Origin: a virus
Length of the DNA stretch: 64,000 nt
Reading direction: 5' to 3' (one strand)
IMG/VR virus record: IMGVR_UViG_3300029784_000281
Shown one piece after another: positions 12-60,194 of this stretch (its first letter is position 1; every line of letters starts with the position of its first letter). A program made the translations under genes and the position numbers. The notes beneath the pieces are model-generated. The model was not told the origin of the DNA and ran no database searches. It saw only the letters and a list, made by a program, of their open reading frames with translations.

Positions 12-1223
12 GTGGCGCAACCACAGCCTCAAGTACAATCTCCGGCACCTGTTCCCGGTACGGTGGGAACGGCTATACCGGATGTGGGGACCGCCCCGTT
101 GCAGGCCCCATCTTTAACGCAAGCGCCGGTGAAACCAGAGGCAACCCCGTTGTCCATGTATGACAAGTTCGCGGATATGACAGCCGAGCAAGCCATTAAC
201 ACGGGTGAGATAACCCCGCAAGGATATTGGAACATACAAAGCGAGGCGATCAAGGCGGGTAAGCGTGATCCTTACTCCACGGAGGAGATTATCGAGATGA
301 TGCGTACGAGCGATCCCGAGTACGAGACGGGCGAGCAAAGGGCGAGACGTGAGAGGAACGACCGGGCGAGCCGTGCCATAACGGGGATAAGCGACCTGAT
401 AAGCAACATAGCCGGAATGGTGGGGACGGCCAAGGGATCGAGTCCCGTGGTCGTGAACAATCTCGCTCCCCTTGACGCTAGGCAACGTGAGATAACGGAA
501 AGGAGAAACGCCTTGAAGAGGAAATACGATACGTTGCTCACGAACGCCAAGATGGGTGAGATAGCCTATCAACGTGATCTGGAGGCGGCTAGGCAAAAGG
601 CGCAGAGGGATTATCGTTTGAAGCTGGCCTTGAAGGATATTGACGCTAGGATAAGGAAGGGCGAGATCGATCAAAAGCAAGCTAACGTAATGACATTGGA
701 GGCGTACAGGCAAGCGAACAGAATGGCTACGGAGCAATTCAAGGCAGAGAACCGATCCAAGGAAGAGGCGGCGAACCGAGCGAACCAGATAAAGGTCGCT
801 AACATAAGATCTGGTGGTTCTGGAGGAGCGAAGGATATTGTACTGTTTGGTCGAGATAATGAAGAGTTTCGTATACCTAGAGATAAGGTGGACGGATTTG
901 TTACAGCGGCCTATCAAGCCATGAAGGATTTGATTGATAAAAAAAATAAAGAAATTGAGCAGGACTCTTCCTTGACCAAGGAAGAAAAAGAGAATCTAAA
1001 ATTATCAGATATAGATGATATTAAACTTGTGATGGGTGAGGGCGGTGATCAGATAGGCAAAGCGAGAGCGATAGTTGGTAGACGGCTAGCTGATTTCCCG
1101 GAACTGTATCCAATGCTGAAAGGCATGCTTGAGGATCGTTCTGATAGTTATAAGAATATCAATCTGAATGATGATGCAAAAGAAAGTGTAAACGAAAAAT
1201 ACAAGTGGATTCATGGACTCTAA
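12..1223 (+). CDS. hypothetical coiled-coil protein, probably 5'-truncated by the window edge. It overlaps the start of the giant gene by 11 nt.
   Basis: The ORF is open from the window edge, with no in-frame stop upstream of nt 12. The protein is charged and coiled-coil-like with good coding appearance. The stop TAA sits inside ATGGACTCTAA, the start of the next gene. Confidence 0.5.
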   Translation: MAQPQPQVQSPAPVPGTVGTAIPDVGTAPLQAPSLTQAPVKPEATPLSMYDKFADMTAEQAINTGEITPQGYWNIQSEAIKAGKRDPYSTEEIIEMMRTSDPEYETGEQRARRERNDRASRAITGISDLISNIAGMVGTAKGSSPVVVNNLAPLDARQREITERRNALKRKYDTLLTNAKMGEIAYQRDLEAARQKAQRDYRLKLALKDIDARIRKGEIDQKQANVMTLEAYRQANRMATEQFKAENRSKEEAANRANQIKVANIRSGGSGGAKDIVLFGRDNEEFRIPRDKVDGFVTAAYQAMKDLIDKKNKEIEQDSSLTKEEKENLKLSDIDDIKLVMGEGGDQIGKARAIVGRRLADFPELYPMLKGMLEDRSDSYKNINLNDDAKESVNEKYKWIHGL

Positions 1224-4200
1224 CATAAAACATTTATATGATACGATGATAAGCCGGGGCTATACTGGTCTTGGTGATTTCTCAAACTTTGAGGGGAAAA
1301 TGAAAGATTCTGGGAAAAGAAAATTGGTTTATGATCATCTGATGCAGGATGATTATTTCTCTGAGATAGGCGATTTCTCCAAATTTGAGAGTGCCCTAGG
1401 GTATTCGCCCGTTGAAAGGAAAGATTACGTTTCTCAATCAAGCGTTAATCCTGCACCTATCGCTTTAAGACAGGAGGTTGACGTGCCTATGAAAGATCAA
1501 TCCGAGTATGTTAATCCATGGGATAATTCTGCCGATTATAATTTTGAGTCCTTGCGTAAAAAAGGAAAGATTGAGACCGCTACTCCTCCACCTCCTACGG
1601 AGTATGAGAAGGATTCTTCTTTCATGAATACTTGGGTAGGAGACGCTATACAGAAGCTGAACGCAGGAGGAGCCGATCTTGGTGCCGGTATCTTTGGGGT
1701 CTTGGATAAGGAGTCCAAAGGACTGGAATCCTCAACTGGAGGATTGATCTCACGTGGCGGGGCATTCAAGGATATCTCAGATAGATTTAAGGCTGATGCG
1801 GAGTTTTCCCGGGCAAGGTCAAACAGATACAATGGCAAGGATTTTATCGATCTGTGGAAAGAAGGGAATTATATGGGTGCCATAGGCGATATAGCCTTGC
1901 AAGGCATAGAGTCGCTTCCGATGTCAATCGGGGCCATGGCCGCTACAATGGCCGGAGCTCCAGCGGCCGGACTCGCTGGTATAGGGTCAATAGTGGCTAG
2001 CCAGAAATATGATGATCTCGATCAGAATAACCCAAACATGGGAGAGTTCGCAAAGGTATCTAACGCTATTATTACTGGTACAGCGGAATCCTTGTCTGAG
2101 ATGCTGGGCGCTGGCGTATCCAAGGCTTGGATGTCAACCTTATTCAAGACGCTAGGAAAGGAAAAGGCGCAAGAGGCTATCAAACGTGGCATAATGGGTA
2201 AGATGCAAGAGCTCTATAAAAAATTCGGTATGTTTTTCGAACCTGTAAATGAAGGTGTCGAAGAGGTGTCTTCCACGCTAGCGGAGAATATAACGGATAA
2301 GATAACTGGTGCGGATCCGGAAAGGGATTTGACCGATGGTGTATTGCAGAGTTTTGTCTATGGTATGGGAGGCGGCGCTTATTTTACTGGAACCGGAGCG
2401 TTGGCTAAAGGTGCGCAATACGTAGCGGATAAAATAGGAGGCAAACAGGCTCAGCAGCCTATCACCGATTCCAATGTAACAGATCAAGGCGTTAACACTC
2501 CTCCTCAATCCACTAAGTCTATAATTGACGATGCCTTTGAGCAAGGACGTAATATGAGTGATAAGGGAGATCTTAGGGATTTATCCTTACAAATGGAAGC
2601 TTCGAGGACTGCTCTAACAGAAAAAAATCCAAATTTGGCTATAAGAATGGAGCAGTATATAGATAATGGAGCGAGTGAGAACCAAATAAATGAGATGCTT
2701 AAAGGTGTAGATAATGAGACAAGAGAATTAGCTTATGATTTCTATATTAACACCCAGAAAATTAAAGGGGTAGAAGATAAATCGATAGAAAATATTAATA
2801 ACGAAGTGGATTCTTATATGTCTGATAATATTATTCCCTATGTATCGATAAGTCCTAATGGGAGACAAGTCATATCTACCGCTACGTTCAAGGAAGGACT
2901 TGAGAACAAGAAAGTTTATATAAGGAGCATAAATGGGGATAACGTCATTATCTCGGATAACGGAAATAATCGTATGGTTCCTATGAGTAGTTTGAGCGAT
3001 ATAGAGGAAAATGACGTGGAACAAATAAGGAACTCTTATCGTCAACAATTATTGGTTACCCGCCAGTCCGAGCTTGACATGACCATGCATCATAATCCCA
3101 AGACGCAATTACCAAAGCCGGGATTGGTCATATGGAACGGGGATAATGCGTTTATTCTTCAAGGACAAGATGAGAACGGTGATTGGATCGCTCAACCTGC
3201 GGCTTATGATAGAGAAACCGGGCAGGTGACAGCCAAGAATGGCTCTTCTCCAGCAATGCCTATAACAGAGAATGAGATTCTTGATCTTCAAGATGCCATA
3301 TATGACGCTCAACAAGTTAATGTGGTGTCGCCAGAGGATGATAATGTTGAAAGTGCTGATGCTGAGATAACCTCTGCACCTCCCGTGGAAGATGCGATCA
3401 ACCAGCCAACGAGTGAGATTGAGACGGAAGGTGCCATTGATCAGATAGCACAACCTAGCAATGTGGAGAATCCCTCCATGGTCATGCGAGAAGATGGTAC
3501 GCCAGATTTCGTGTCGTCTGGGGTGGATGCTACATTGGATTTCCTCCATGATAAATACGGAGAGAAGATGCCCAAGAAGATCGAGGTGACAAGGAAGGCG
3601 TTCGACGAGGATCTCAAGAAGGCTTCAGAGAAACTGGATAAGGCCCAAGAAGCATATGACAATGCCCCTATCGGAAAAGAGGATAAGGTCGAGGCCGCAC
3701 TGATCAAAGCCAGACAAGAGTATGATGCGATCAAGGTCGAGGCTGATTTCTGGGCTAATCTTGATAATCGGTTGAAAGAGGAAAGCGAAAAGGCTACTGC
3801 CACTTCAGGTCAAGTTATCGATATCTCGGAAAAAGAGGATACGGAACCTGTCGACATCAAAAACGAAGATGTGGTTACACAAGAAGGCGCATCCGGAGAG
3901 GTAAAAGAATCCGGTAGCAATCTGTTCAATTATTTTACTGGAAGCCTTTCTGATTTGATTGAGCAGGCAAAGAAGTCTGCCGGGAAGTTGATCAAGAAAA
4001 TCGTCGCACCCGTATCTGACCGTCTTAGGAATGACTTGGAGATAAAAGGCGTATCTATCACAAGTGATTATAATCACGTTATAGATAACAACGCTATACG
4101 GCATACTCTTAAGCAACATGGTGGTAACAGCGAGATTAAACGTGGGCAAGTCCCTGTTAACGATTCCGATTTTGATAAAATATCAGACATCGTAGAAAAC

Positions 4201-7200
4201 TATGATGATATAAAGGTCGAGGATGGAAAGAGAGGAGATGTGAACATCATTTACTCAAAAAACTTCAATGATGGTACTACAATATTCGTTGAGGAGAAGC
4301 GTGATAAGCGTAAGGAATTAGCCGCTGTCACCATGTGGAAAATGAAAAATCCTATTCTCACCGGCGCTAATAGCGATAACGCTACGCCAATTCCGGATTT
4401 GAACAGGATTAAAAGACAAGCTGAACGTAAGGGCGGCGAACTCCTCATACTGACCCCAAAAAGGGCGGCGGCAAGCCTTTCCACTTTTCCGGACAACTCG
4501 TCTTCTACCGACAAAGGTAGTATATCCTCTTCTGAAAACCAAGCGAATGAGGCTAAATCTTTTGTCGCCCCTTCCCCAAAGGAGAGTGAGAACCCATTGG
4601 ACTATGCCGAGCGCATAGTTGAGGCTAAGAGATTGCACGATGAGGAGCTAAAGGTTGACACTACCCCTTCCGAGGCACAGAAAGAGGCCGGGAATTACAA
4701 GAAAGGCCATATAAAGATAAACGGTTTCGATGTTACCATAGAGCAGCCTGCCGGTTCCGTCCGTTCCGGAAAGGACGTTAATGGAAAAGAGTGGTCTGTT
4801 ACCATGAGTAACACTTACGGTTATATCCGTGGCACCGAGGGTGTGGATGGTGATCATATAGACGTATTCTTAGGTCCGGATATGAATAGTGACATGGTGT
4901 ATGTTGTGGATCAGGTGAATACTGATGGCTCATTCGACGAGCATAAGGTTATGATGGGATTCCCTTCCTTGGAAGACGCTAGGTCCGCTTACTTGTCAAA
5001 CTATGAGGAAGGCTGGAAAGGGTTAGGCAACATTACCGGGGTCACGTTGGATGGGTTCAAAAAATGGATCGATTCCTCGACCCGGAAGACCAAGCCGTTC
5101 TCTGAATATAAAAGTGTTAAAGCTATAGAAGAGAAGACAAATAACGAAAAGCCCCAAATGCCCCTTACTGAGGATGAATACGCGGAACAAAGGAGTAAAG
5201 AGATTATGGGCGATAATCCGGGTATGGATGATATTGGCGCTTATAATCAAGCGTTGGATGAGTATCCTTCATATATAAGAAAGATGGTCGATAATGGTTC
5301 GATGAGAGACTCGTACTTAAAAGGATCTGTAGGAGAAAGGATTAAACTTGGAAAGATCATGAACGCTGCCGGATTTGAACTGTCTGAGATATCAAAAGGC
5401 TCACGAGAAGAGTCTATTATGGAGTCTGATTTTAAAGTTGGCGATAAAGTAACTATCCGTTTTTATGATGGATTATATCATACGGGAGAGATATCAAAGA
5501 TGTCAAAAGACGGGAAAGTGACCGTTTATGCAGACGGAAAGAATTACACCGTATCTCAAGACAGGATTTTATCGGATAGTGATGTTCGTTTTCGTTCTAT
5601 AGGAGAGAAAGACACTGATAACTTAAATAATGCTGAAACTATTGAATCCTCAATCAACGATTGGTCAAACAAGCTTAATACCCCTGTCAGGGTAATCCAT
5701 GACGTGGACGATATAACCGATACAGATGAGAATATGTTGGCCCGTAAGAGAGATTCCAAAGGCTGGTATGATACTTCTACCGGGGAGATAGTCATAGTAT
5801 CACCTAATTCCACGTCCGTAGGTGACGCTCAAAGAACTTTCCTCCATGAGGTGGTAGGGCATCACGGGCTACGTGAGTTATTCGGGGATGATTTCGATAC
5901 TTTCCTTGATAACGTGTATCGGAACGCCAACGAGGATATCCGGAAAAATATCATTGACCGGACTAAAGGCAATCCTCTTAACTTGCGTGAGGCTACAGAG
6001 GAATACCTCGCTGAATTAGCGGAACGTGGTTTCGATAACAAGGCCGAGCGTTCGTTATGGGAAAAGATCAAGGACGCTTTTCTTGATATGTTGAGAAAGG
6101 CAGGTATTAGCCTTGATTTCAAGTTATCGGATAATGACCTCCGTTATATTCTCTGGAGAAGCTATAAGAACTTGGAGCAAGGAAATTTGATGGATGTGGC
6201 TGAGGATACGGTAATGAGGAATGATTTGGGTATCGGGGATTTTTCTGTTCGGTTTAGGGAAGCGAAAACAGAAGTGGAGAATGAAGAACCTTTGAATAAG
6301 GAAATGGTTGACGCTTGGGATAAAGTGGCATCTTCAGACAGTTTTAAGTTCAAAGAGGCTATGGTTGACTCTTTAACAGCTATAGATGAGTTCTTGAAAT
6401 TATTGGCCAAGAAAACCAAATCGAAGATACTGGATTACGAGAACCCATATTACGCTCTTATAGCCTTGTCTTCAAAGAATAAGGCGGATATGGATAGTTT
6501 CGACTCTAAATTCCTTAATCCTTTGAATGAGGCTATAAGGGCATTGATAGGTGATGTCTCAGAGGTGTCCAAGAAAGGTTTAAGAAGAACTTGGGATTGG
6601 TCTAAAGGGCCATTAAGGGATCTGGTTAAATATGTACAATCTAAACACGGTATCGAGAGAAACCGTGATATGTCCGTAAGGGATGGCATAGAAACTCTTA
6701 AGGCGTTTGACGTGGACGCTTTGTCTAAAATGGGGGTTATCTCCGACTCTGATCTTAAAAACGCTAAAAAAACAGCGGAAAAGGTTGCGGAGGAAAAGGG
6801 GAGTGAGGCTTACAAAAAGACGTATGACAAGGTTCTTGGCAAGGAACTAAAGAAAGGTGTTGATAAAGATAAGGCTGAGCGTTCTGCTGAGATAGCCGCC
6901 GATTATCGGAAATCATTTGTCAAATCCGAGATCTATAACAAGGAGATGGATAAATATAAAGAAAAGGTGACCGGAACGTTGATTGATAGGTGGGAAGATT
7001 CAAAGAAAGATGTCCTTAATAAGGATCTAGCGTGGGACGAGGAACAAAAGGAGTTGGATCGAGAGGCATTGTCATTCCAATGGAAGTTAGGCGATAATTC
7101 TTATGGTGTGATTCTAGGAAAGGACTATAGTGGTTTGTCTTCAGTGTTTAAGCCTTCGGAGGATGGAGCGAATAAAGATAAATGGCTTTCTGACGCTTAT

Positions 7201-9714
7201 GATTTCGTGAGAGATTATGAGTCTACCCATAATATGGTTTTAGTCGATAATCTATGGGATAAGGTTCATAACGTGTCAGAGTATACGTTAAGGAGGCAGT
7301 ATGAGTCCGGGCTGATAAGCAAGTCCTATATGGATAAGAACCTTTCCCGGTTTAAGTACTTTATCCCGTTGAGAGGTTTCTCCGATAATATTGCCTCCGA
7401 TGTTTATGATTACATAGACGCTACGGAGATAAAGATGGGAAACCCAGTGAAGACCGCTAAAGGACGTATCTCTGAGGCTGATAATCCTTTCGCTGGTTTG
7501 ATACACGTTGGATACGGATCTATTACCGCAGGAAATAGGAACTTGGCGAAACAACGTTTTCTCAATTTAGCTAGCAATCATGACACTGGCGGTCTTATTA
7601 CCATAGATAATATCTGGGTTCGAAATGTCGGTACCGAGGAAAATCCGGAATGGGTGGAGTCCATTCCGCAAATACCGGATAACGCTTCTGGCGAGGAAGT
7701 GGCCAAGGCGGTGAAAGATCATGAGGAAATGATGAGAGAGCTTAGAGAGGAAGGTAAGGCTGAGCTGATTAAAGGAGGTCGATCGGATATACCATATAAA
7801 ACATTGTATGACCAGAGAAGCCAGCATCAGGTACAGGTTTTCGTGGGAGGTAACAGGTATGTCATGACCGTTAATGGCAATCCCCGATTGGCGCAAGCGG
7901 TAAATGGATTGACTAATCCGGATGTGAAGGATGATCTCGCTTACGTCGTAGCTAGGAACTTGAAAACATTTATGGCCGGAGCTTTTACGTCCAAGAACGT
8001 GGCGTTCTCGTTTGCCAACTTGATAAGAGATACGCCTTATGCCAATAACTCCGTGTTTGTGACGGAGAACTTTAGGTATTTCAAGGATTTTTCAGGGAAT
8101 CAGAGGCGAGCGTTATTTGGACTTCGGAGTTTAGGTCGTAATCTGTATAAATACAGAAGGGGAGAGATTGATATTTCTGATAAGGAACAGGCGATATTTA
8201 AGGAGTTCATGGATAATGGAGGGGCTACTGGATATACGTTCGTGGAGACGCAAAAGGAATACGCCAAGGATTTAGCGAACAAGTTAGAGAAACTTTCGGA
8301 TGGTAATATTGGGAAGTTATCCCCCAAAGAACTAGTCTCTACTGTATTTGAGTGCTTTGAGTTCATGGGTAACGTAGCGGAACTTGTGAACCGATATGCG
8401 GCGTATAAGACGAGCCGGGAACATGGAAGATCCATTGACCGGTCAATCAATGATGCCAAGGAGGTATCGGTTAACTTTAACAAGAAAGGTGCCGGAAAGA
8501 AAACGAAGAGCGATAAATGGTATATTAACACAGTAGCGTGGATATCTGAGTATGGAAGAGATTGGGTGTTGTTCTTTAACGCCGCCGTTCAAAGCATGTA
8601 TAAGGAATATTCCATGCTGAGAAATCATCCAATTAAAGGAATAGGTTCCCGTATAGCCCCACTAATATTCATGGGATCGTCTGTCTCGTTGCTCAATAAT
8701 CTGTTTATGCCTATGCTCTTCGCTTATTTGGGATGGGATAGCGATGATGATGATAGGGATTATTTTGATTCATTGAGCGATCATGAGAGACAGAATAATA
8801 TATGTATTCGTTTGACTCATGGTCGTTGGCTCAAGATTCCGTTATCTCCGGAGCTTGCCAATTATTTCAAGATCGGAGATATAATTGCCGGGCAATTATC
8901 TGGTAAAAGGGAAGTGGAGGCGATGGATGTCGTTAAGACAGGGATTGATATGGTATCTCCGTTAAACATAAACTGGGAGTATGATAGTTGGAAGTTCGCT
9001 CTAAATCTCCTGCCTACGGTGGTTCAGCCTATCGCCCAAAACGCCTCTAACGTGAATTTTATGGGTAATCCTATCTATAAGACCTCGATGAATAAGGCTA
9101 ATGATTATGATCCGGAGTACACCAAGGTCTACAGGAGTACCAGTACCACCATGGTTGAGTTGTCGAGGGCACTTAACTCGTTGACGGGTGGCGACGATGT
9201 CAAGAGAGGTCTGAGCTTTAATCCGGCTACTTGGCAGAACATTTTTTCTGGATATACGGGAGGTTTTGGTACCGTAGCCTTGGGGGTGTCTGATTTAGTC
9301 CTTGATATACTGTCCGGAGAGGATGGAGATATGCCAGTGAGTCGTTATCCACTGTTAAGCCGTTTCTTGACCGGAGGGGACAAGGATTTGAAGCTGAGCC
9401 GGATGAATTCCATATATAACAAGAAGGTCGTAGACTTTGTCTCGGAAATGGATCATGATTACAAAGGGTATCTAGAGAAGTCCATGGACCCATCTATCAA
9501 TATTCTTGACAGGGCAGAATATATCGTAAAACTTGAGAAGTTTATGAAAAGTGATGATTTCAAGAAATCTCAAGAATTATCTCAATACGTGAGAGCCATA
9601 TCCGATATGGAAAGGTTCCTTCGTGAGGTAGGTAGCGATAATGATTCTCTGGAGAACCAAGTGTACGAGCTGAAGCTACGAGCGTTGGAGATATTTGAGG
9701 ATTCAGATGAGTGA
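1213..9714 (+). CDS. giant (2833 aa) multidomain virion-associated polyvalent-type protein. It carries a zincin-like HExxH metallopeptidase motif and an inorganic-pyrophosphatase-like segment.
   Basis: Uninterrupted 8.5-kb ORF. HEVVGHH at nt 5845-5865 (about aa 1545). NTYGYIRGTEGVDGDHIDVFLG at about nt 4810-4875 resembles the family I PPase signature (NYGFIP...DGDPLDVLV). All antisense ORFs in this span look spurious. Confidence 0.8.
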   Translation: MDSNIKHLYDTMISRGYTGLGDFSNFEGKMKDSGKRKLVYDHLMQDDYFSEIGDFSKFESALGYSPVERKDYVSQSSVNPAPIALRQEVDVPMKDQSEYVNPWDNSADYNFESLRKKGKIETATPPPPTEYEKDSSFMNTWVGDAIQKLNAGGADLGAGIFGVLDKESKGLESSTGGLISRGGAFKDISDRFKADAEFSRARSNRYNGKDFIDLWKEGNYMGAIGDIALQGIESLPMSIGAMAATMAGAPAAGLAGIGSIVASQKYDDLDQNNPNMGEFAKVSNAIITGTAESLSEMLGAGVSKAWMSTLFKTLGKEKAQEAIKRGIMGKMQELYKKFGMFFEPVNEGVEEVSSTLAENITDKITGADPERDLTDGVLQSFVYGMGGGAYFTGTGALAKGAQYVADKIGGKQAQQPITDSNVTDQGVNTPPQSTKSIIDDAFEQGRNMSDKGDLRDLSLQMEASRTALTEKNPNLAIRMEQYIDNGASENQINEMLKGVDNETRELAYDFYINTQKIKGVEDKSIENINNEVDSYMSDNIIPYVSISPNGRQVISTATFKEGLENKKVYIRSINGDNVIISDNGNNRMVPMSSLSDIEENDVEQIRNSYRQQLLVTRQSELDMTMHHNPKTQLPKPGLVIWNGDNAFILQGQDENGDWIAQPAAYDRETGQVTAKNGSSPAMPITENEILDLQDAIYDAQQVNVVSPEDDNVESADAEITSAPPVEDAINQPTSEIETEGAIDQIAQPSNVENPSMVMREDGTPDFVSSGVDATLDFLHDKYGEKMPKKIEVTRKAFDEDLKKASEKLDKAQEAYDNAPIGKEDKVEAALIKARQEYDAIKVEADFWANLDNRLKEESEKATATSGQVIDISEKEDTEPVDIKNEDVVTQEGASGEVKESGSNLFNYFTGSLSDLIEQAKKSAGKLIKKIVAPVSDRLRNDLEIKGVSITSDYNHVIDNNAIRHTLKQHGGNSEIKRGQVPVNDSDFDKISDIVENYDDIKVEDGKRGDVNIIYSKNFNDGTTIFVEEKRDKRKELAAVTMWKMKNPILTGANSDNATPIPDLNRIKRQAERKGGELLILTPKRAAASLSTFPDNSSSTDKGSISSSENQANEAKSFVAPSPKESENPLDYAERIVEAKRLHDEELKVDTTPSEAQKEAGNYKKGHIKINGFDVTIEQPAGSVRSGKDVNGKEWSVTMSNTYGYIRGTEGVDGDHIDVFLGPDMNSDMVYVVDQVNTDGSFDEHKVMMGFPSLEDARSAYLSNYEEGWKGLGNITGVTLDGFKKWIDSSTRKTKPFSEYKSVKAIEEKTNNEKPQMPLTEDEYAEQRSKEIMGDNPGMDDIGAYNQALDEYPSYIRKMVDNGSMRDSYLKGSVGERIKLGKIMNAAGFELSEISKGSREESIMESDFKVGDKVTIRFYDGLYHTGEISKMSKDGKVTVYADGKNYTVSQDRILSDSDVRFRSIGEKDTDNLNNAETIESSINDWSNKLNTPVRVIHDVDDITDTDENMLARKRDSKGWYDTSTGEIVIVSPNSTSVGDAQRTFLHEVVGHHGLRELFGDDFDTFLDNVYRNANEDIRKNIIDRTKGNPLNLREATEEYLAELAERGFDNKAERSLWEKIKDAFLDMLRKAGISLDFKLSDNDLRYILWRSYKNLEQGNLMDVAEDTVMRNDLGIGDFSVRFREAKTEVENEEPLNKEMVDAWDKVASSDSFKFKEAMVDSLTAIDEFLKLLAKKTKSKILDYENPYYALIALSSKNKADMDSFDSKFLNPLNEAIRALIGDVSEVSKKGLRRTWDWSKGPLRDLVKYVQSKHGIERNRDMSVRDGIETLKAFDVDALSKMGVISDSDLKNAKKTAEKVAEEKGSEAYKKTYDKVLGKELKKGVDKDKAERSAEIAADYRKSFVKSEIYNKEMDKYKEKVTGTLIDRWEDSKKDVLNKDLAWDEEQKELDREALSFQWKLGDNSYGVILGKDYSGLSSVFKPSEDGANKDKWLSDAYDFVRDYESTHNMVLVDNLWDKVHNVSEYTLRRQYESGLISKSYMDKNLSRFKYFIPLRGFSDNIASDVYDYIDATEIKMGNPVKTAKGRISEADNPFAGLIHVGYGSITAGNRNLAKQRFLNLASNHDTGGLITIDNIWVRNVGTEENPEWVESIPQIPDNASGEEVAKAVKDHEEMMRELREEGKAELIKGGRSDIPYKTLYDQRSQHQVQVFVGGNRYVMTVNGNPRLAQAVNGLTNPDVKDDLAYVVARNLKTFMAGAFTSKNVAFSFANLIRDTPYANNSVFVTENFRYFKDFSGNQRRALFGLRSLGRNLYKYRRGEIDISDKEQAIFKEFMDNGGATGYTFVETQKEYAKDLANKLEKLSDGNIGKLSPKELVSTVFECFEFMGNVAELVNRYAAYKTSREHGRSIDRSINDAKEVSVNFNKKGAGKKTKSDKWYINTVAWISEYGRDWVLFFNAAVQSMYKEYSMLRNHPIKGIGSRIAPLIFMGSSVSLLNNLFMPMLFAYLGWDSDDDDRDYFDSLSDHERQNNICIRLTHGRWLKIPLSPELANYFKIGDIIAGQLSGKREVEAMDVVKTGIDMVSPLNINWEYDSWKFALNLLPTVVQPIAQNASNVNFMGNPIYKTSMNKANDYDPEYTKVYRSTSTTMVELSRALNSLTGGDDVKRGLSFNPATWQNIFSGYTGGFGTVALGVSDLVLDILSGEDGDMPVSRYPLLSRFLTGGDKDLKLSRMNSIYNKKVVDFVSEMDHDYKGYLEKSMDPSINILDRAEYIVKLEKFMKSDDFKKSQELSQYVRAISDMERFLREVGSDNDSLENQVYELKLRALEIFEDSDE

Positions 9715-9755: not shown

Positions 9756-10230
9756 AAATATATTCACTGATCAAACCAATAAATGCTACTATTGCAATAA
9801 TAGAGAATATGAACATTGTTACCGCACTTAATCTAAGAAGATATATGGATATAATTTCAAGTACATTCCATGATTCAGTACCTAGTATCATAAACTGGGT
9901 TGTATATTCCTTGTACCCTGTTTTTATAGTTTTTTTCTCTATGACACGATAACATCCAATAGGTATTAAGAATATGCCAAGAAACATTAGAAAACGGTAT
10001 CTTACTTCTGATATACCATATGGCGTTGTTACTTCTCTGAATCTAATTCCTTCAAGAATTATACCTAAAATCCTTGCGTCATACAAATAGATGTCTCTTC
10101 CATTTCCATTAGGTGTTCTTGGCTTGAATTTGGTTTCCCATAATATCTTTTCTAAAATAATGTCTTTATTGAAAATATAGACTAATATCGCAGATGAAAG
10201 GATAGCCATGCTGTTTAAAAATTCTTCCAT
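9754..10230 (+). CDS. hypothetical membrane protein in an AT-rich islet
   Basis: 158-aa ORF in a roughly 28% GC region where long ORFs are unlikely by chance. Hydrophobic N- and C-terminal segments. Convergent with the J-domain gene. Confidence 0.35.
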
Positions 10231-10232
10231 AT

Positions 10233-11243
10233 TTATTTTTCAAAAAAATCCGATTGGTTAATTTTTTTTGTTCTCATATTTCCATTAGACACTTTATGAA
10301 GAGTAACTTCATAGTATGGAATAGAAATTCCATTTTCGGTTCTCTCTGAAAACATGTTAAAATAGTCCTTATAGTTGGCTTGTGAAGAGTAATACACATT
10401 TGATTGAAACATTCCTAACTTCATCCCATCAAATAATAAGTTAGGATTCCACTCATTACCATAAACACATTTCATCTCATAAATACCTTCTGGAATATTT
10501 TTTATATCATAAGATGTATGCTTGTTGATATATACATTCCTGATAATCTTTTTACTAGTTATATTTTTTAATATAACAATAGCATCCTGATCACTTCCAT
10601 TCTTTACTGTTATATAGTTCTCTTGGCTATCATCATACAAATTAAGTCCAAAGTATTCAGTAAAAGGGGAATCTCCATTCATAAGATGATTATTCTTGTA
10701 CAGATCCGAATATAAATCACTATTGATATTATTAGAATCTTTGTGTATGTTTGACTTTGTAGTATCAACCGTTAAAGTCTCATTGTTGGGATTATTTGTA
10801 TGGTAAATTATACAAGCGGTTATAAATGATAAGCATATAAATACCTGTAAAATTCTTTTGCTCTTCTTATTTAACTTAGTATTGTATTTTTTCCTTTCTC
10901 TTCCACGTTTATTATCTTGCTTGTTTAATGATTCCTGTTCTTTAATATCAACTTTATTTGATCCTTTTGAGTTTATTGAATTAAATACATTTTGTCTATA
11001 GGAATTTAAGTCATTATCATATTTTGATCTTCGTTCTGGGTCAGATAATACTTCATATGCCTTTTGTATTTTTATAAATATATCATGTGCATTGTCGCTT
11101 TTGTTTTTATCAGGATGATATAATAATGCCTTTTGCCTGTATGCTTTTTGTATTTCTTCAAAAGTAGCACATTCAGTAATTCCAAGAATAGTATAGTATG
11201 TATTTATAGACATGTTTTGTGTTTTTTTTGCAAAATTACCCAA
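10233..11243 (-). CDS. J-domain (DnaJ-like) protein with a central transmembrane helix
   Basis: N-terminal YYTILGI...EIQKAYRQKALLYHPDKN...IQKAYEVLSDPERRSKYD is a canonical J domain with an HPD motif. A hydrophobic ILQVFICLSFITACIIY segment follows. Confidence 0.75.
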   Translation of the reverse strand: MGNFAKKTQNMSINTYYTILGITECATFEEIQKAYRQKALLYHPDKNKSDNAHDIFIKIQKAYEVLSDPERRSKYDNDLNSYRQNVFNSINSKGSNKVDIKEQESLNKQDNKRGRERKKYNTKLNKKSKRILQVFICLSFITACIIYHTNNPNNETLTVDTTKSNIHKDSNNINSDLYSDLYKNNHLMNGDSPFTEYFGLNLYDDSQENYITVKNGSDQDAIVILKNITSKKIIRNVYINKHTSYDIKNIPEGIYEMKCVYGNEWNPNLLFDGMKLGMFQSNVYYSSQANYKDYFNMFSERTENGISIPYYEVTLHKVSNGNMRTKKINQSDFFEK

Positions 11244-11375
11244 TCTTCACATCCGTTATCCCGCAGGAGGCATGTTTTACGGCATGTCCGTGAATTTTCC
11301 AGTAGTACTTACCCTTCCAACGAAGTATATCTTCTATGCGGCTTGCTGTATATATTAGATGACAAAGTAGTATTG

Positions 11376-11657
11376 TTATTCCACTTTAATCTTTAACGGA
11401 TATCCGCAGTTAGGGCATTTATATCCACCATCGGTCTCTTTTTGTACTTCGGAAGGGGAGGCGAAAAGTTGCCACATGGGAACTTCTAGTGCGGAGGCTA
11501 TCTTTTCGAGGGTCTCTTGAGAAGGATTGCCTGCTAAAGTTTTGACAATAGAACTTCGTGATACATTTAGCTTATCTGCAAGTTCAATTTGAGTAATACT
11601 CTTTTCTTTAAGTATATCTTTTATTCTATTCATACTATTATATTTAAATTTATGCAA
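11376..11657 (-). CDS. XRE-family HTH transcriptional regulator with a C-terminal CxxC zinc ribbon (repressor-like)
   Basis: SITQIELADKLNVSRSSIVKTLAG is an HTH_3-like helix-turn-helix. C-terminal CPNCGYPL. The real start may be the internal Met of MNRIKDIL. Confidence 0.7.
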   Translation of the reverse strand: MHKFKYNSMNRIKDILKEKSITQIELADKLNVSRSSIVKTLAGNPSQETLEKIASALEVPMWQLFASPSEVQKETDGGYKCPNCGYPLKIKVE

Positions 11658-12117
11658 AGATAGAACATATATGCGGTAGTGTACAATTATAACTGTACTA
11701 ATTTAAGTTAAAGGAATAATTATATATACTCTTTTACTTGAAAATGTGCAGCTATGATTGTACATTTGCGGTAGATCAGTCAAAGTAAATCCCCGAAAGC
11801 GGAAGTGACTGAGCCGCTAACGGGGACATTGTACAAATATAAACGTGTTCAAACGTTATGGAAAATTTGAATACTAAATAAATTAATAATAAAAAATATG
11901 ATTTTGGATTTGCATATGTTGGAAATAGTTAGCACCTTTGTAGTGCTACAACTTACTATTAATAATAGCCAGTGGGATTTTTTATACCCATAAGGGAGCT
12001 TGTATAAAAATATATAAGCAGGCAATATCCGTGTATCATCGCCCAATGGCAATGGTAGGTTGTAGCAGACTTGGATATTTGCCTGCTTTTTCATTTAATA
12101 TCAAATAATTTCATTTC
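11658..12117. promoter_or_regulatory. divergent intergenic control region between the HTH regulator and the antirepressor. It holds repeated TGTACA palindromic cores and a GC-rich hairpin.
   Basis: Three copies of TTGTACA (gtgtacaatt, ttgtacattt, ttgtacaaat) and two copies of gcggtag. Hairpin ccccgaaagcgg...ccgctaacgggg. 460 bp non-coding between divergent genes. Confidence 0.4.
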
Positions 12118-15985: not shown

Positions 15986-17920
15986 TTATAATTGTTGATT
16001 GATAGCGTCGATGCCTTGGCCGGCTATCATTTGTTGTTGCTGAGCGGCTAATTGTTCCTTCTGCGACTGGATCAATTGCAATAACTGATCGGCGAACGGG
16101 AAATTTCCCACCTCGAGCATTTGCTCGATAGATATCTGCTTGGCGTTCAGCAACTGCAATAGCAACTCGTTGGATAACGCCCTGTATACCGGAGTGTCGT
16201 AGTTCTCTGATATGGATATGTCGAATTCCACGCCTCCCATGGTCTCCGGGTCCCATTGGACATAGCCGTTCCTTCCAACGATCCTTATTATTTTTTTATC
16301 GTCGTAGAATTGCTGGATGTTCTTGCACTTCTTGTACATGCCCGATATGATGAAGCTGGCGAACGATTCCAGCAAGTCCACGATGCTGTTGCTGGCGTTG
16401 GACGCTTGTTGCTGGTATAAGGCTCCGCTTGTCCCGCTCGTGGGCTGTTTCCCCTGCATGGCCCCTTGTACCCCGGATACGTCCTCCATCATGGACATCT
16501 GTAATTTTATCATGTCTCCCAACCCTGCCGGCACGCTCCGGTTCATCATCTGCTGGGGGACCTGTGCCCCCGATTTGAGTTTCAGCTTGATCACGCCGTT
16601 GAACTTCGTCCACTCGTCCGCTATATCCTCTATGCTCATGTCATCGGGAACGGAGGCCTCGTCTACCACCAGCACTCCCTTGGCGCTCGCTTTCGTCACG
16701 AAATCGTTCAGGATGATATAATGGTTGATATACCTTTGCTGGTCGATGATGTCGCTGACGAACGAGTGTATCTCCCCGTCAACGAAAGGATATGCCTTCA
16801 TCGTGTAAGGGTGGCTCCCGTGGCTATAAGGGCTTTCTCCCTCGTCAAGTATATCCCCGAACGGTGAAAGATAACGGTAGTACCAGTAGCTTTGTATCAT
16901 GTACTCGTACTCTATGAGCGGGACCTCGCTCTCTGGCATGTATAGCGTGGGTTGTCCCAGCTCGTCCAGCACGTAATTCCCCAGCTCGTCCTTGATCCTG
17001 TTATCCTCCAGCCGGCCCTCGTTCTCAGCGTCTATGTTCCCCTTGTTCGAGTAACTGTCCACGTAAGCGTCGCCCTTCAGCCAGTCGTGGCACCAGAACG
17101 CCTTTCTTCTCTCGAGCGTCCATAGTTCTATCACACGGCATAAGCGGGGGTCTTGCGGGGCCATAAACCCGTTAAGGTCATAATTGTTGCCCTTGAACGT
17201 GTCGTTGAACTTGGCGATATAGTCCTTGTCACGGGCGTTCTTGTATATATCTTGCAGCCTTTCATAATCCCTGTCATCCTTGGCGAATACGCTGGCGAGT
17301 TGCCCGAAGGTCACGTCATGGATCTCTCCGATCATCTCGATGTCGGTATGTCTGGGATCGTTCATGGGGCCGTCCACGAAGAACAGGTTCGGGTTGACGT
17401 TGTCAGTCCAGCATTCCCTTCGGTTTTCCCTTTGGGCGTAGGTCTCTTTCTGTATGGATAGGCCGCTTATGAGGAACTCCTCGAACATCCTTGCGTTCAG
17501 CTCCTTGATGTCGTTGATCTTGTTGTTGTACTCGAGCATGGTGCTCATGGTCTCTCCCAGCGTTTGCTCGTCACGATCCCTCGCCACGCACACGGGTGTC
17601 TTGTTCTGGTTCCGATAAACGCCGATGACGGTCCTAGCCAATCTTCGGATAAGGTTGTTGGTCATGGGGATATTCCCCTGCATCCTTATATATTCCTCCT
17701 CCGGGATCATCCGGCCACAATACTCGATCAGGTCCCCCCATTGGTCGCCGTACATATATCTCTTGTTCCTGTCCCTCTCTTTCCTGAACTTGTCGAGCTT
17801 GTCCCATGCCCTAGCGCATTGGTATACCAATGGCATGTTCCGCCCGTCCGTCATGTTTCGTCTCTCGTATTTGACGGTGTCTATAGGTGATATCCTCGAT
17901 TTAGGGATCAATCTAGTCAT
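15986..17920 (-). CDS. portal protein (candidate)
   Basis: 644-aa protein encoded immediately downstream of the large terminase on the same strand, with the acidic, Gln-rich C-terminus typical of portals. The call rests on position and size only. Confidence 0.55.
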   Translation of the reverse strand: MTRLIPKSRISPIDTVKYERRNMTDGRNMPLVYQCARAWDKLDKFRKERDRNKRYMYGDQWGDLIEYCGRMIPEEEYIRMQGNIPMTNNLIRRLARTVIGVYRNQNKTPVCVARDRDEQTLGETMSTMLEYNNKINDIKELNARMFEEFLISGLSIQKETYAQRENRRECWTDNVNPNLFFVDGPMNDPRHTDIEMIGEIHDVTFGQLASVFAKDDRDYERLQDIYKNARDKDYIAKFNDTFKGNNYDLNGFMAPQDPRLCRVIELWTLERRKAFWCHDWLKGDAYVDSYSNKGNIDAENEGRLEDNRIKDELGNYVLDELGQPTLYMPESEVPLIEYEYMIQSYWYYRYLSPFGDILDEGESPYSHGSHPYTMKAYPFVDGEIHSFVSDIIDQQRYINHYIILNDFVTKASAKGVLVVDEASVPDDMSIEDIADEWTKFNGVIKLKLKSGAQVPQQMMNRSVPAGLGDMIKLQMSMMEDVSGVQGAMQGKQPTSGTSGALYQQQASNASNSIVDLLESFASFIISGMYKKCKNIQQFYDDKKIIRIVGRNGYVQWDPETMGGVEFDISISENYDTPVYRALSNELLLQLLNAKQISIEQMLEVGNFPFADQLLQLIQSQKEQLAAQQQQMIAGQGIDAINQQL

Positions 17921-17985: not shown

Positions 17986-20061
17986 TCATATGGTAGCCTC
18001 GCTGATAGGACCATGGGGCCTTACGCCGGGGGACTTATCCTTGGGGATGGACGGCAGATCCATGTCGCAATAACATATATAAAGTCCTATAGCCCTAGTC
18101 ATGACCTTGTCGTCGTGCTTGCCTTCCACGGCCCCGAACGATCCGTTGGCTTTCTTCTCGTACGTGGACATCTCATCCAGCGTGTCTATATCCCGCTCGA
18201 TATATGACTGTTCTCGGAGGCATGCCACGAGATAGGATATGATCATTGGCTTGGTGTTCCGGTTCGTGTGGAATCCCCATTCCGTCAGTTTTCCGGCCCG
18301 TATCTTGGCCTCGCTCGCCTTACGTGCGTACAGGTTGTCGTAAGCGTCCCCGATCTGGTTGAATATCAACTCGGACTGGTTTCCGTCCGTATCGTTGTCC
18401 TTGGTCTCTATGGTATTGCTCTCTATGACTAACAGGGCGTTCCCGAAAAACTTGGCGATCTGGGCGGATTTCCATGCTAACAGGTCATGGTCTATGTGTC
18501 CGTGCCATTCGGCCACTACCTCCGGCTTCCCGCCAAACATCATCCAATAGCGGTCTATCACCAAGATGTCCGAGAAATCGGATTTCTTTCCACGGCCCCC
18601 TATATCCACGATCACGAGGTAACGATTCTTGACGTTCGCTTGATCGTCTGGCAACGACCATACCTTGAGCGACCCGTTATGATCCTCCTTGAATGACAGC
18701 TCTGTCAAGGCGCTCTTCCCTTTAACGGACTTGCCCGATATTTCCCCGACATACTTGGGGGGCTTGCATCCCTCCTTCAGCTTGTCTATATGATATACGC
18801 TGAATACCATGTTGCCGGAGTTCTTGAACGCCTCCACGTCATCGCTGGGAAACTCCGCCGCCATGTCCGCGTGCTCCATGAAATCCTTCCGCTTGACTAA
18901 ATACCAGTTTATAGCCTCAAAGGAAGCCCCCAGCTTCCATAGTCTCCAGTAATATTTCCCGGGGTCTAGGCATCCATCCGGAGGATTGTCGTTCTCCTTG
19001 TTGTCAAGAAGCCATTTGGCGAATGCCCTCTTGTCCTTCACGGGTAGCTCGTATCTCTCGATCTTGAACCATGGGACGAATACGAACCTCCTGTTGCTTT
19101 TGCCTTTCTTGGCCGTGACACATGACCGGTAGAAGAAATTTCCCATACCGTTAGCGGTGGATTCTATGACCTCCACGGTAAGCGGGGCCAATAGCAAGGA
19201 TGAGGATATGCTCCTTATTATATCTTCCGGGGTTTTCCCGTCCGTGTCATCCCATAATCCCACCTCGGAATAATGTACGCAGCTCATGTCACCGCCCCGT
19301 CCCGAGTTTGGGCTGTTATAGGTGCCTATGGTTATGACCGTGTCCCTTGCCTTCTCCACGTTGCTCCCTTTCCCATACGTTATGATACTGTCCAATTGCG
19401 ATCCCTCGTAAGGCGTGAATCCCAGCGTGACGTTATCCGGCAGGTCCAATAGCCATGTGGGGTATTTCTCCAGCATCTTGCTATACATGGCCTTGATTTT
19501 CCTTGACGTGGATGCGTCTTGCGCTACGATGGTGGAGTACCACGCCTCTTTATGGCATAGTTGTATCCACGCTATATATAGCTGTACCAACGTGGAACCT
19601 CCCCATTGCCGGGCCTTTAGCAGGATGATCCTTATGGGTAGTCCCGCCAATCTCATATTCTCCATCACGGATAGCAGCAGGCGTTGTGGATAGTTGAGCT
19701 TGAAATGGATGTTCTTGCCTCCCTCCTTGTTCTTTATCTCGCAGAAAGAGTAAGCCCAGAAAGGGAAGTCATGCTTGTTCCTTACTTTTATGAACTGTCG
19801 TACGACCTTCTCATGAAGTTCCTCGTCATACCTCTTGAAGGTGACCTTGCAAAAGGCCCTTATGGATTTATACCTTATTATTCTTTTAACTAGCTTGTTT
19901 GATAGCATGCTGACTGGCAGGAGCATCTTGTATGGGTACATGTCGGATATCTCGACCATCTCTCTTGTCCCGGGCGAGTTCTCTCCCTTGATAGGGTCGA
20001 AATGGGCGTGCATCTCGTCGTTCCTCCTGTTATTCTCCTCTACTAACCAATCTATAGTCAT
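17986..20061 (-). CDS. terL: terminase large subunit
   Basis: The Walker A-like LKARQWGGSTL matches the terminase ATPase motif. 691 aa, adjacent to the portal candidate. Confidence 0.75.
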   Translation of the reverse strand: MTIDWLVEENNRRNDEMHAHFDPIKGENSPGTREMVEISDMYPYKMLLPVSMLSNKLVKRIIRYKSIRAFCKVTFKRYDEELHEKVVRQFIKVRNKHDFPFWAYSFCEIKNKEGGKNIHFKLNYPQRLLLSVMENMRLAGLPIRIILLKARQWGGSTLVQLYIAWIQLCHKEAWYSTIVAQDASTSRKIKAMYSKMLEKYPTWLLDLPDNVTLGFTPYEGSQLDSIITYGKGSNVEKARDTVITIGTYNSPNSGRGGDMSCVHYSEVGLWDDTDGKTPEDIIRSISSSLLLAPLTVEVIESTANGMGNFFYRSCVTAKKGKSNRRFVFVPWFKIERYELPVKDKRAFAKWLLDNKENDNPPDGCLDPGKYYWRLWKLGASFEAINWYLVKRKDFMEHADMAAEFPSDDVEAFKNSGNMVFSVYHIDKLKEGCKPPKYVGEISGKSVKGKSALTELSFKEDHNGSLKVWSLPDDQANVKNRYLVIVDIGGRGKKSDFSDILVIDRYWMMFGGKPEVVAEWHGHIDHDLLAWKSAQIAKFFGNALLVIESNTIETKDNDTDGNQSELIFNQIGDAYDNLYARKASEAKIRAGKLTEWGFHTNRNTKPMIISYLVACLREQSYIERDIDTLDEMSTYEKKANGSFGAVEGKHDDKVMTRAIGLYICYCDMDLPSIPKDKSPGVRPHGPISEATI

Positions 20062-21842: not shown

Positions 21843-23279
21843 ATGAGATCAAAGAGTTTTTTTAATTATTTGGGCGGCTTGGTATTGACCGTTTTGGCCG
21901 TGATGCTAGGAGCCACTACCGGATGCGGGATGTGTATGGCCGTACCGACAACCACGGATGGAGGGGGAGAGGTGACTGATATTAACCCGGGGATTGCGGT
22001 CACGGATGCCAATGGCGGGGCGACTGCTACGGATGGCATTCAAATCTCGAAAGAAACGGATAATCCAGAGTATTATGCGAAGGCTATAGACAAGCGTATC
22101 ACGAAAATGAGACCGATGCGTACTCCTATAGACCAGATCACGAGGAGCGCAGAGAGTATTAGCAGGGTCAACAGCATGGTCGTGAAATATTACAGTGTAT
22201 CGACAAGACCCATCAAGGATTCCGTCAAGACCGATACGACCGAGATGGCATCAGGATCATCTTATGTAACCTTGCCTGTGAATGATGCTTCTCTCTTTAG
22301 CGTGACTGATACGATCCGGGTATCTGGGATCAAGGGCTATAAAGAGGATGGATCGACTCAGGATACGGTAAAGGACTTGATGCTTTATGTCGTGGGCAAG
22401 AGCGAGAACGAGGGATATCCGCAAGTGATTGCCGTGAACGGCAAACGAAATACGACAGGAGAGAATTCTATCGTTCCAGCCCTTAAAAAGAATGACGTGC
22501 TTATTCGTATGGGCCGTGCCGCAGGGGAATTGGACGTGGAGACCGGGCAGTTCTATTCATTGCCTACGCCACAAGAACAATTTTGCCAGAGATTCATGAT
22601 GCAGGTAGAGGAGTCCACGTATAATAAGATGTGGAGTAAGGAGGTTGACTGGAACTTTGACGATATGGAGGAGGACGCTATCTATGATATGCGTTTGGGT
22701 ATGGAGAACTCATTCCTGTTCGGTATCAAGGGAAAGAGTAAGGATCCCAAGAAAACGGGTATGGATGTTTATTTCACCGGTGGTATTTGGTGGATGGCAG
22801 GTCAGGACAAGTCTTTGGGAACCGTTGATGACTCGACCAATGAGATTGTGATCAAGGACGATGAGATGGTTGATTTCTTGAAGGAGATCTTCACGGGTAA
22901 TGATGCGGGGAACAAGACGAAGATCGCTTTCTGCGGATCTGATTTCTTGGCAGCCTTGGCCAAGATGAAGAGTGAGCGTTTCAAGGTCGTTAAGGAGTTC
23001 GAGAAGTGGGGGCTTAAATTTACCTCTTTCGATAGCAATTTCGGTAAGTTGCTGGCTATGCACCATGAGTTGCTTGATATGAACATGAAATCAGACGAGG
23101 CCTTTGTTATGGACCCCGAATACCTCCGTAAAAGGACTTTCGAGATGTTTAGCAGAAAGACTTATGACATGGAGAAATTAGCGAAACGTAAGACTAGTGC
23201 CGTGGTCTTGAATGAGGCCAGTTGCTGTTATCTGGTATATCCGAACGCCCACATCCGTGTTAAGTTAGGTTCTTTATAA
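21843..23279 (+). CDS. major capsid protein (candidate)
   Basis: 478 aa, between the scaffold-like gene and the tail genes, followed by a hairpin with a poly-G stem. No motif-level confirmation. Confidence 0.4.
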   Translation: MRSKSFFNYLGGLVLTVLAVMLGATTGCGMCMAVPTTTDGGGEVTDINPGIAVTDANGGATATDGIQISKETDNPEYYAKAIDKRITKMRPMRTPIDQITRSAESISRVNSMVVKYYSVSTRPIKDSVKTDTTEMASGSSYVTLPVNDASLFSVTDTIRVSGIKGYKEDGSTQDTVKDLMLYVVGKSENEGYPQVIAVNGKRNTTGENSIVPALKKNDVLIRMGRAAGELDVETGQFYSLPTPQEQFCQRFMMQVEESTYNKMWSKEVDWNFDDMEEDAIYDMRLGMENSFLFGIKGKSKDPKKTGMDVYFTGGIWWMAGQDKSLGTVDDSTNEIVIKDDEMVDFLKEIFTGNDAGNKTKIAFCGSDFLAALAKMKSERFKVVKEFEKWGLKFTSFDSNFGKLLAMHHELLDMNMKSDEAFVMDPEYLRKRTFEMFSRKTYDMEKLAKRKTSAVVLNEASCCYLVYPNAHIRVKLGSL

Positions 23280-23281
23280 AA

Positions 23282-23310
23282 TAGGGGGGGATTCGCCTCC
23301 CCGCTTTAAA
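23282..23310 (+). terminator. possible attenuator or terminator hairpin after the capsid gene
   Basis: GGGGGGGattcgCCTCCCC hairpin followed by gcttt. The T-run is weak. Confidence 0.3.
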
Positions 23311-23320
23311 TCGTTGTGTC

Positions 23321-23686: not shown

Positions 23687-23687
23687 T

Positions 23688-60080: not shown

Positions 60081-60194
60081 ATGTTGTTGATTTAAATTTC
60101 TTGATGTGAAAAGGCCTCATATCCTCACGGACGGAGACCTGCGTTGCACTTTCGTGAAATAATTGATTGAATAAGCACCCCTAGGGGTGAAACG

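Follow-up and report, generated by a model that had tools for sequence, protein, structure and literature searches.

A phage-type polyvalent protein from a Bacteroides phage with a constant scaffold, two variable effector slots and a candidate junction motif

The giant proteins most similar to the one analysed here are the phage-type polyvalent proteins surveyed by Iyer et al. (2017; J Bacteriol 199:e00245-17; PMC5512222), in which InPase, PBECR, LPD38 and zincin-like metallopeptidase (MPTase) domains stand in one giant polypeptide encoded by a phage or prophage, and for which virion delivery and self-processing have been predicted. The Pfam families InPase, PBECR3 and LPD38 all derive from that survey, which lists InPase and LPD38 as polyvalent domains of phage type only. 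It describes the InPase domains of phage polyvalent proteins as type-I-like and lacking the usual beta-hairpin, which all characterised inorganic pyrophosphatases (PPases) have, reports InPase-type domains fused to portal proteins as well, and notes one set of polyvalent metallopeptidases with HEXXXH and a bent helix (PMC5512222). Here we analyse a 2833-residue protein encoded in a 64,000-nucleotide stretch of viral DNA (IMG/VR virus record IMGVR_UViG_3300029784_000281; the whole stretch is called the window). We propose, with good confidence, that it combines a scaffold with exchangeable cassettes and is delivered in the virion, self-processed and equipped with an RNase effector and an InPase enzyme.

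Two further groups of relatives are informative. The first is the orthologue gp68 of Bacteroides phage BF1-TP2 (PQ571263, XPO94596.1; 3633 residues; labelled 'hypothetical protein'). The second comprises the 'DarB-like' giants JC1 gp69 and Bcep22 gp75, which have a homologous C-terminal module. Gp69 of Burkholderia phage JC1 (4515 residues) is encoded where the virion module of that temperate podovirus (~61 kb) ends and is proven in virions, since 51 unique peptides were detected by mass spectrometry of CsCl-purified particles (PMC9144972).

Domain architecture and variable cassettes

The gene occupies 1213..9714 on the plus strand as a single uninterrupted open reading frame of 8.5 kb, the largest in the window, just as the first-pass annotation (made from the sequence alone) had described it. 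It is real and intact: an identical copy of the 2833-residue protein is on record in 41 contigs, and the nr database names it 'Large polyvalent protein associated domain 38 [Bacteriophage sp.]'. The 2833 residues include just two cysteines (1213-9711). Pfam searches, including sliding scans with 400-residue windows at E<=5, recovered three confident domains, InPase (PF18823), PBECR3 (PF18812) and LPD38 (PF18857). The PHROG matches are to giant-protein families of unknown function and to those called 'DarB-like'. The features of the protein are as follows (residue numbers in parentheses).

1213..9714, plus strand: giant polyvalent-protein gene, ATG start, 2833 aa plus stop (open reading frame list and translation)
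1213..3771, plus strand (aa 1-853): N-terminal scaffold, conserved blocks aa 1-143 and 424-853 (BF1-TP2 mosaic comparison and 120 alleles)
3772..4671, plus strand (aa 854-1153): variable slot 1, in which the allele here carries PBECR3
4036-4350, plus strand (aa 942-1046): PBECR3, predicted RNase (Pfam PF18812, E=8e-18)
4672..5070, plus strand (aa 1154-1286): InPase domain (Pfam PF18823, E=1.6e-59)
5074..5670, plus strand (aa 1288-1486): variable slot 2, a 199-aa allele here
5587..5595, plus strand (aa 1459-1461): RFR-1, context SDSDVRFRSIGEKD, 28 aa upstream of the protease domain
5671..6282, plus strand (aa 1487-1690): zincin-like metallopeptidase (MPTase) of HExxxH type
6250..6258, plus strand (aa 1680-1682): RFR-2, context GDFSVRFREAKTE, at the C-terminal edge of the protease, where model confidence drops
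6970..9711, plus strand (aa ~1920-2833): C-terminal module, including LPD38 (phrog_14770)
8761-9351, plus strand (aa 2517-2713): LPD38 (Pfam PF18857, E=3e-29; 102.8 bits against a cut-off of 27)

The order of the scaffold is thus N-terminal blocks, InPase, HExxxH zincin-like protease and a ~900-residue C-terminal module with LPD38, with an effector slot on either side of InPase. PBECR3 is a predicted barnase/EndoU/colicin-E5/RelE-like RNase family. Between the conserved N-terminal blocks, a diverged stretch (aa 144-423) includes a Gly/Ala-rich hydrophobic segment at aa 239-261 (nt 1927-1995; hydropathy), and the N-terminal 860 residues match nothing in the PDB (phmmer) and no family in the sliding Pfam scans. 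The slot-2 allele of the window, a small unnamed module, contains a weak Tudor/SH3-like stretch at aa ~1405-1445, where the similarity to Tudor reaches just E~0.5. Two further Pfam matches, crAss_CARG1 (E=0.12) and Q_salvage (E=0.005-0.04), are below threshold and were taken as noise.

By the definition of Iyer et al. (2017) the protein is a phage-type polyvalent protein, and an ordinary member of that class. It unites several unrelated catalytic or effector domains (InPase, PBECR3 RNase and zincin-like protease) in one polypeptide of 2833 residues, carries the class markers LPD38 and InPase above their Pfam cut-offs, and is encoded by a phage, as seen from the structural genes in the window, the near-identity to BF1-TP2 and the integrated copies. 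The Pfam domains and phage context thus uphold the first-pass suggestion of a polyvalent-type multidomain protein. Nothing essential separates it from the described class, whose HExxxH protease clade is mentioned by Iyer et al. and has no Pfam model. As a finding the protein therefore adds little: the class, the presence of InPase within it and the HExxxH variant were all described in 2017, and a named database entry already existed for the identical protein. That survey describes neither the two slots with their cassettes nor an RFR motif at the junctions, and these are the most useful leads beyond the first-pass annotation.

The cassette organisation was defined with the 120 best full-length homologues (2588-3988 residues; hereafter close alleles), in which the slots were delimited by anchoring on the constant blocks. 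InPase is present in 120 of 120 and LPD38 is matched in all but one, while PBECR1, PBECR3, PBECR5, ART-PolyVal, LPD3, LPD13 and LPD23 vary. Slot 1 has seven alleles of 245-525 residues, the Pfam-annotated ones carrying PBECR3, PBECR1, LPD13 or LPD3. Slot 2 has 16 alleles of 55-1000 residues and is a string of discrete modules, built from ART-PolyVal, PBECR5, LPD23 and unnamed blocks. Together the slots occur in 32 combinations, the commonest being that of the window (36 of 120). Toxin-type cassettes (PBECR1/3/5 RNases and an ADP-ribosyltransferase) and LPD domains are therefore shuffled on near-identical scaffolds inside a single gut phage lineage.

The same mosaic is seen in a single pairwise comparison. 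BF1-TP2 gp68 and the window protein have aa 1-143, aa 424-853, the InPase region and aa 1458-2833 in common at 91-98.5% DNA identity, whereas gp68 has no PBECR3 in slot 1 and carries ART-PolyVal and PBECR5 between InPase and the protease, in slot 2. Among 149 distant giants that have this C-terminal module, 79 contain InPase as well, upstream of HExxxH in nearly all that have both, and InPase is therefore a common backbone element of the family. Judging by these alignments, InPase is a fixed part of the backbone and not optional cargo, which narrows the hypotheses on its role.

The HExxxH protease and the RFR junctions

The first-pass annotation had read HEVVGHH as a classic zincin HExxH motif. 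The string is present at aa 1545-1551 (nt 5845-5865), but the motif is HExxxH (HEVVGH, aa 1545-1550, nt 5845-5862), with an extra residue between the histidines, and a regular-expression search found no HExxH anywhere in the 2833 residues. Neither the sliding Pfam scans nor NCBIfam gave a zincin, helicase, methylase or RNA polymerase model anywhere in the protein, and NCBIfam returned no match at all. A search with aa 1450-1900 found 81 homologues. In 58-81 homologues at 30-50% identity, LHE[AV]V[AG]H.GLR..FG is nearly invariant, as are the downstream EEYLA.LAE and DNELRYILWRS. E1597 is invariant and E1604 nearly so; both lie on helix H109-126 of the structure model, and E1597 is the candidate third metal ligand. 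Like the Pfam score of the InPase region given below, this conservation puts the motif well beyond a chance occurrence.

The AlphaFold2 model of the domain (predicted local distance difference test score, pLDDT, 89.4) has a zincin-like fold with the N-terminal helix, three-stranded sheet, catalytic helix and Glu-bearing helix of the zincin core, and its top fold matches are zincin-like, including ArdC, a polyvalent-protein MPTase. Compared with PDB sequences, a profile of the region gave only noise (botulinum neurotoxin E, BoNT/E, at E=0.5). According to the model, then, the domain is a zincin at the level of the fold and a known HExxxH variant, not the classic motif. It has the core fold of ArdC/IrrE-type zincins, ArdC itself being the MPTase of a conjugative polyvalent protein; those enzymes have HExxH, whereas the domain here has HExxxH with an invariant GLR after it, and additionally inserts two helices ahead of the residue proposed as third ligand.

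The tripeptide RFR occurs exactly twice in the giant protein, and the pair brackets the protease domain. In longer alleles, every further slot-2 cassette brings its own [DG][IV]RFR[ESF]; RFR sites at residues 1548, 1754, 2259 and 2480 of BF1-TP2 gp68 bracket the ART domain (1614-1746), the PBECR5 block and the protease. Of 30 recombination breakpoints in slot 2, 14 are no more than 15 residues from an RFR against 3.0 expected, a count that none of 2000 simulations reached, and four further breakpoints lie 17 residues before a variant, AHFRS. The RFR codons differ from junction to junction (CGT TTT CGT, CGG TTT AGG, CGT TTC AGG and CGC TTC CGG), and the constraint is therefore on the peptide, not on the DNA. 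Divergent homologues have an acidic linker and then [LIVMR][FY]R[DES]G after the protease domain. This pattern is enriched ~6-fold in distant giants (57 observed, 9.9±2.7 expected), and 69 of 154 instances of [LIVMR][FY]R fall in a peak 130-159 residues past HExxxH. A looser pattern is barely enriched (137 observed, 100 expected).

Tentatively, these sequence patterns mark the [IV]RFR junctions as candidate self-processing sites of the HExxxH protease. The protein might then be a self-cleaving 'effector polyprotein' in which [DG]-[IV]-[RH]-F-R-[ESF], or hydrophobic-[FY]-R-[DES]-G in distant relatives, marks every boundary as a protease cleavage site, although we hold this only as a possibility. 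The products so delimited could be an InPase-bearing N-terminal product, each slot-2 cassette, the HExxxH protease and the C-terminal virion module, an assignment that we regard as equally provisional. If true, any toxin cassette recombining into the slot would be released automatically, and this would account for the at least 32 combinations that one phage lineage carries while its scaffold hardly varies. The division of polyvalent proteins into functional pieces would then follow a rule open to test, and protein delivery into Bacteroides would gain a natural plug-and-play scaffold.

It is also possible that the junctions are recombination joints, or short docking motifs (for packaging, for example) in linkers, and not protease sites. 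Their coincidence with recombination breakpoints fits this, as do two observations that speak against a general motif rule: co-occurrence of RFR and the HExxxH protease in distant giants is weak (0.25 against 0.20 per 1000 residues, p=0.045), and the strict motif is absent from many distant homologues. The codon diversity, the ~6-fold enrichment of [LIVMR][FY]R[DES]G in distant proteins and the peak of [LIVMR][FY]R directly after the protease domain count on the other side, in favour of protease sites. Iyer et al. (2017) mention no linker or cleavage motif (PMC5512222).

Virion association, InPase and competing explanations

Searching with the C-terminal 1133 residues gives 4354 matching representative proteins at E<=1e-3, of which 1050 reach E<=1e-30, and the module occurs in 320 phage records, including those of Shiga toxin (Stx)-converting, Ralstonia, Vibrio and Burkholderia phages. 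For almost every one of the 150 proteins listed, the match (query residues ~220-1130 of the 1133) lies at the extreme C-terminus of a protein of 2000-6500 residues. Residues 2017-2718 of the giant protein align with residues 3750-4417 of JC1 gp69 (blastp E=1.3e-21), at ~22% identity and confined to this part. A phmmer search of the PDB with the C-terminal 1133 residues gave no match. On the indirect evidence of this homology to a proven virion protein, we propose that the C-terminal module is a virion-association module and that the giant protein is probably virion-borne.

A course of events can be proposed from these parts. The C-terminal module would serve to package the giant protein in the capsid, and the protein would be expelled into the cell along with the DNA. 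There its own metallopeptidase would divide it into individual products, perhaps by cutting at the [IV]RFR junctions. The PBECR3 RNase would attack host RNA, and InPase would hydrolyse a P-O-P bond, either in pyrophosphate (PPi), which would pull early nucleotidyl transfer forward, or in a host pyrophosphate-containing nucleotide signal, both options being taken from Iyer et al. (2017). Because InPase is a fixed element without an upstream RFR site, it would stay joined to the N-terminal scaffold and the slot-1 effector. What the analysis itself shows is the identity of the domains, their conserved catalytic residues, both folds, a temperate-phage setting, the mosaicism of the cassettes and the C-terminal homology to a proven virion protein.

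The protein might instead be mainly a structural ejection protein, akin to an ejectosome component, whose conserved termini form a trans-envelope conduit for a short-tailed phage and whose enzymes are secondary passengers. Hydrophobic segments occur at aa 239-261, 2476-2502 (nt 8638-8718) and 2682-2700, the latter two in the C-terminal module; the C-terminal ~900 residues are the most widely conserved part (the 4354 representatives above) and C-terminal in nearly all 150 proteins listed; and the family occurs in phages of ~55-68 kb, several of them described podoviruses (Burkholderia JC1, Ralstonia relatives), and in Stx-converting phages. The hydrophobic peaks are nevertheless weak (Kyte-Doolittle 1.3-1.5), neither the N-terminal nor the C-terminal part resembles any solved ejection protein in the PDB, and the active sites of the enzymes are invariant and therefore selected functions. 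We consider a mainly structural role rather unlikely, and it is compatible with the scaffold-and-cassette explanation.

The first-pass annotation had recognised a PPase signature string at residues ~1190-1215; the string, NTYGYIRGTEGVDGDHIDVFLG (YGY...DGDHID), is indeed there, slightly displaced at aa 1200-1221 (nt 4810-4875). The assignment to a family-I-PPase-like module was sound: the Pfam InPase score is 200 bits against a cut-off of 26.8 and covers model positions 1-134 of 135, the acidic residues are conserved, and profile and fold both match family I PPases. A search with aa 1140-1300 found 226 homologues, mostly free-standing proteins of 150-280 residues at 50-70% identity. In an alignment of 121 sequences (50-70% identity), E1177, R1184, Y1202, G1203, D1212, D1214, D1217, D1242, E1243 and K1245 are invariant, Y1204 is 97% conserved and D1233 95%, so that the acidic PPase-like residues singled out by the first-pass annotation are retained among homologues. 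In E. coli family I PPase, the metal- and phosphate-binding residues are E20, K29, Y55, D65, D67, D70, D97, D102 and K104. Their counterparts in InPase are E1177, R1184, Y1202, D1212, D1214 and D1217 by alignment, and D1233, D1242 and K1245 by spacing only.

Against PDB sequences, the best match of the InPase family profile is the C-terminus of the portal protein gp19 of Pseudomonas phage Pa193 (E=5e-47), the sole PDB relative of InPase and a domain without density in the cryo-EM map, so that it supplies no experimental structure. Of the 30 remaining matches, 28 are classical family I PPases at marginal E-values (0.016-0.9), with alignments that cover the IE.P.G and YG..T..DGD..D motifs. The M. 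tuberculosis PPase has ~9 extra residues at the position of the hairpin between strands 1 and 2, and InPase accordingly lacks the beta-hairpin. The structure model of InPase is confident, its best PDB fold matches are family I PPases, and it has an oligonucleotide/oligosaccharide-binding (OB)-like barrel. The PROSITE PS00387 signature of these enzymes is D-[SGDN]-D-[PE]-[LIVMF]-D-[LIVMGAC]. InPase, with DGDHIDV, departs from it. Sequence and model together thus indicate that InPase is a divergent, hairpin-less family I PPase fold with its active-site residues intact, belonging to PF18823 and outside the classical family. It resembles the E. coli, M. tuberculosis and yeast enzymes in its barrel, its IE.P.G and YG.(9)DGD..D motifs and its acidic and basic active-site residues, and differs from them in the missing hairpin between strands 1 and 2, the marginal sequence E-values (>=0.016), the signature His and its place within a 2833-residue protein.

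InPase might alternatively be an OB-fold without catalytic activity that serves as a binding domain, with DNA, the portal or the inside of the capsid as conceivable partners. Portal proteins carry homologous domains at their C-termini (Pa193 gp19, BcepF1), a structural location, and InPase lacks the hairpin of all characterised PPases and has His at signature position 4. The ligand-matching residues are, however, invariant (D1233 at 95%) in 121 sequences, which is hard to explain without catalysis, and we consider a dead domain improbable. The first-pass annotation had also called a PPase module in such a protein uncommon and functionally unexplained. The former does not hold, as PF18823 was defined from such proteins and InPase occurs in 11 PHROG families, as well as in the close alleles and distant giants counted above; the region here matches nine families beyond the giant-protein PHROGs. 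The latter holds in the experimental sense, since our literature search found no paper testing the InPase domain biochemically, but functional proposals exist: Iyer et al. (2017; PMC5512222) suggest that the domain clears PPi or hydrolyses a nucleotide-like signal.

Several observations weigh against a virion-delivered, self-processed effector protein. About 60% of the protein (aa 1-853 and 1691-2516) is without assignable function. At the level of single domains, the Pfam model MPTase-PolyVal (PF18818) gave no match at E<=5 even when aa 1351-1750 was scanned alone, the classical Pfam Pyrophosphatase model (PF00719) gave none at E<=1, and InPase has His at signature position 4 where classical enzymes have Pro or Glu. 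The giant gene adjoins the lysogeny end of the prophage, and divergently transcribed genes lie between it and the capsid and tail operon. Finally, a literature search for proteomic or biochemical support, covering this phage and BF1-TP2, found no paper on BF1-TP2.

P1 DarB guards incoming DNA from type I restriction, and its defining domains are a DNA methyltransferase and a helicase. A DarB-like anti-restriction role for the giant protein is suggested by its match to phrog_10089 ('DarB-like antirestriction', E=1.3e-71) and by homologues so annotated in Ralstonia and Burkholderia phages and in BKO1-TP3, but Pfam, the sliding scans and NCBIfam detected no methyltransferase or helicase domain in the protein, and the PHROG match spans aa 352-1305, the scaffold and InPase, so that the name has been carried over from shared modules; we consider such a role highly improbable. 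This bears on annotation, since BF1-TP2 gp68 is called 'hypothetical' and relatives are called 'DarB-like antirestriction' or 'Type I restriction enzyme', none of which fits the domain content. A crAss- or N4-type virion RNA polymerase is rejected, the first-pass annotation having called a crAss-type one unlikely: the protein has no DxDGD, only D.D.D strings (DSDFD at aa 984 and DSDDD at aa 2509), and no RNA polymerase profile.

Genomic setting and neighbouring genes

The window is from a tailed temperate Bacteroides phage of the short-tailed type. It has 97% identity over aligned DNA to BF1-TP2 (PQ571263; host B. fragilis), in which an integrase and a repressor lie just upstream of gp68, and some copies of the giant gene lie in prophages integrated beside host hyp genes. 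Comparison with a sibling contig joins the end of the window to its start through ~5 kb, and the window is therefore a nearly complete, circularly permuted phage genome. Besides the genes listed below, it encodes tail fibres, RecT, an exonuclease/ATPase, a methyltransferase, Ant/KilA regulators and a DnaJ-domain protein.

12..1223, plus strand: upstream open reading frame, at least 403 aa here and 441 aa in BF1-TP2 (gp69), overlapping the start of the giant gene by 11 nt
15986-17920, minus strand: portal protein, P22/SU10-type
17986-20061, minus strand: terminase, with a PHROG link to the terminase large subunit
21843-23279, plus strand: major capsid protein, SU10-type

The upstream open reading frame (12..1223) has no match in Pfam, PHROG or NCBIfam and no similarity to JC1 gp67 or gp68. 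The gene immediately downstream of the giant one is encoded on the other strand and specifies a DnaJ (J-domain) protein (10233-11243, minus strand), of which BF1-TP2 has a shorter version; it falls in the interval of lowest G+C content (GC) of the window (10001-12000, 0.307). The BF1-TP2 counterpart of the terminase gene, gp60 (24195-25047), is recorded as 'tail spike protein' while its own note cites a structure match to Terminase_6C, and the label is probably a mis-annotation.

A sibling contig with an identical giant protein carries, at its positions 22172-27513, genes for a major facilitator superfamily (MFS) transporter, a Mob_Pre relaxase, a Toprim primase and a DUF5906 protein after the Ant gene, in place of the KilA-N gene and the portal; this stretch looks like a small mobilisable element inserted in the phage.

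Among the tail genes, 24353-27973 (plus strand) encodes a 1206-residue protein that has tail-fibre PHROG matches and ends in a GDSL/SGNH esterase domain of ~250 residues (Pfam E=1e-10); it may act from the tail as an esterase on surface polysaccharides. Two adjacent tail fibre or spike genes follow (29319-31295 and 31306-33738, plus strand), whose N-terminal anchors of ~50 residues both match the same tail-fibre PHROG families and whose remainders match little. Exchange of receptor-binding parts may underlie the dips in GC at 26-28 kb and 32-34 kb (0.32-0.34). Two tRNA genes are present, Met-CAT (60194-60269, minus strand) and Arg-CCT (61759-61832, minus strand). An unusual recombination module is formed by a 697-residue fusion of an exonuclease-like N-terminus with an FtsK/terminase-like ATPase (56039-58132, minus strand) and the adjoining RecT annealing protein (58129-58929, minus strand).

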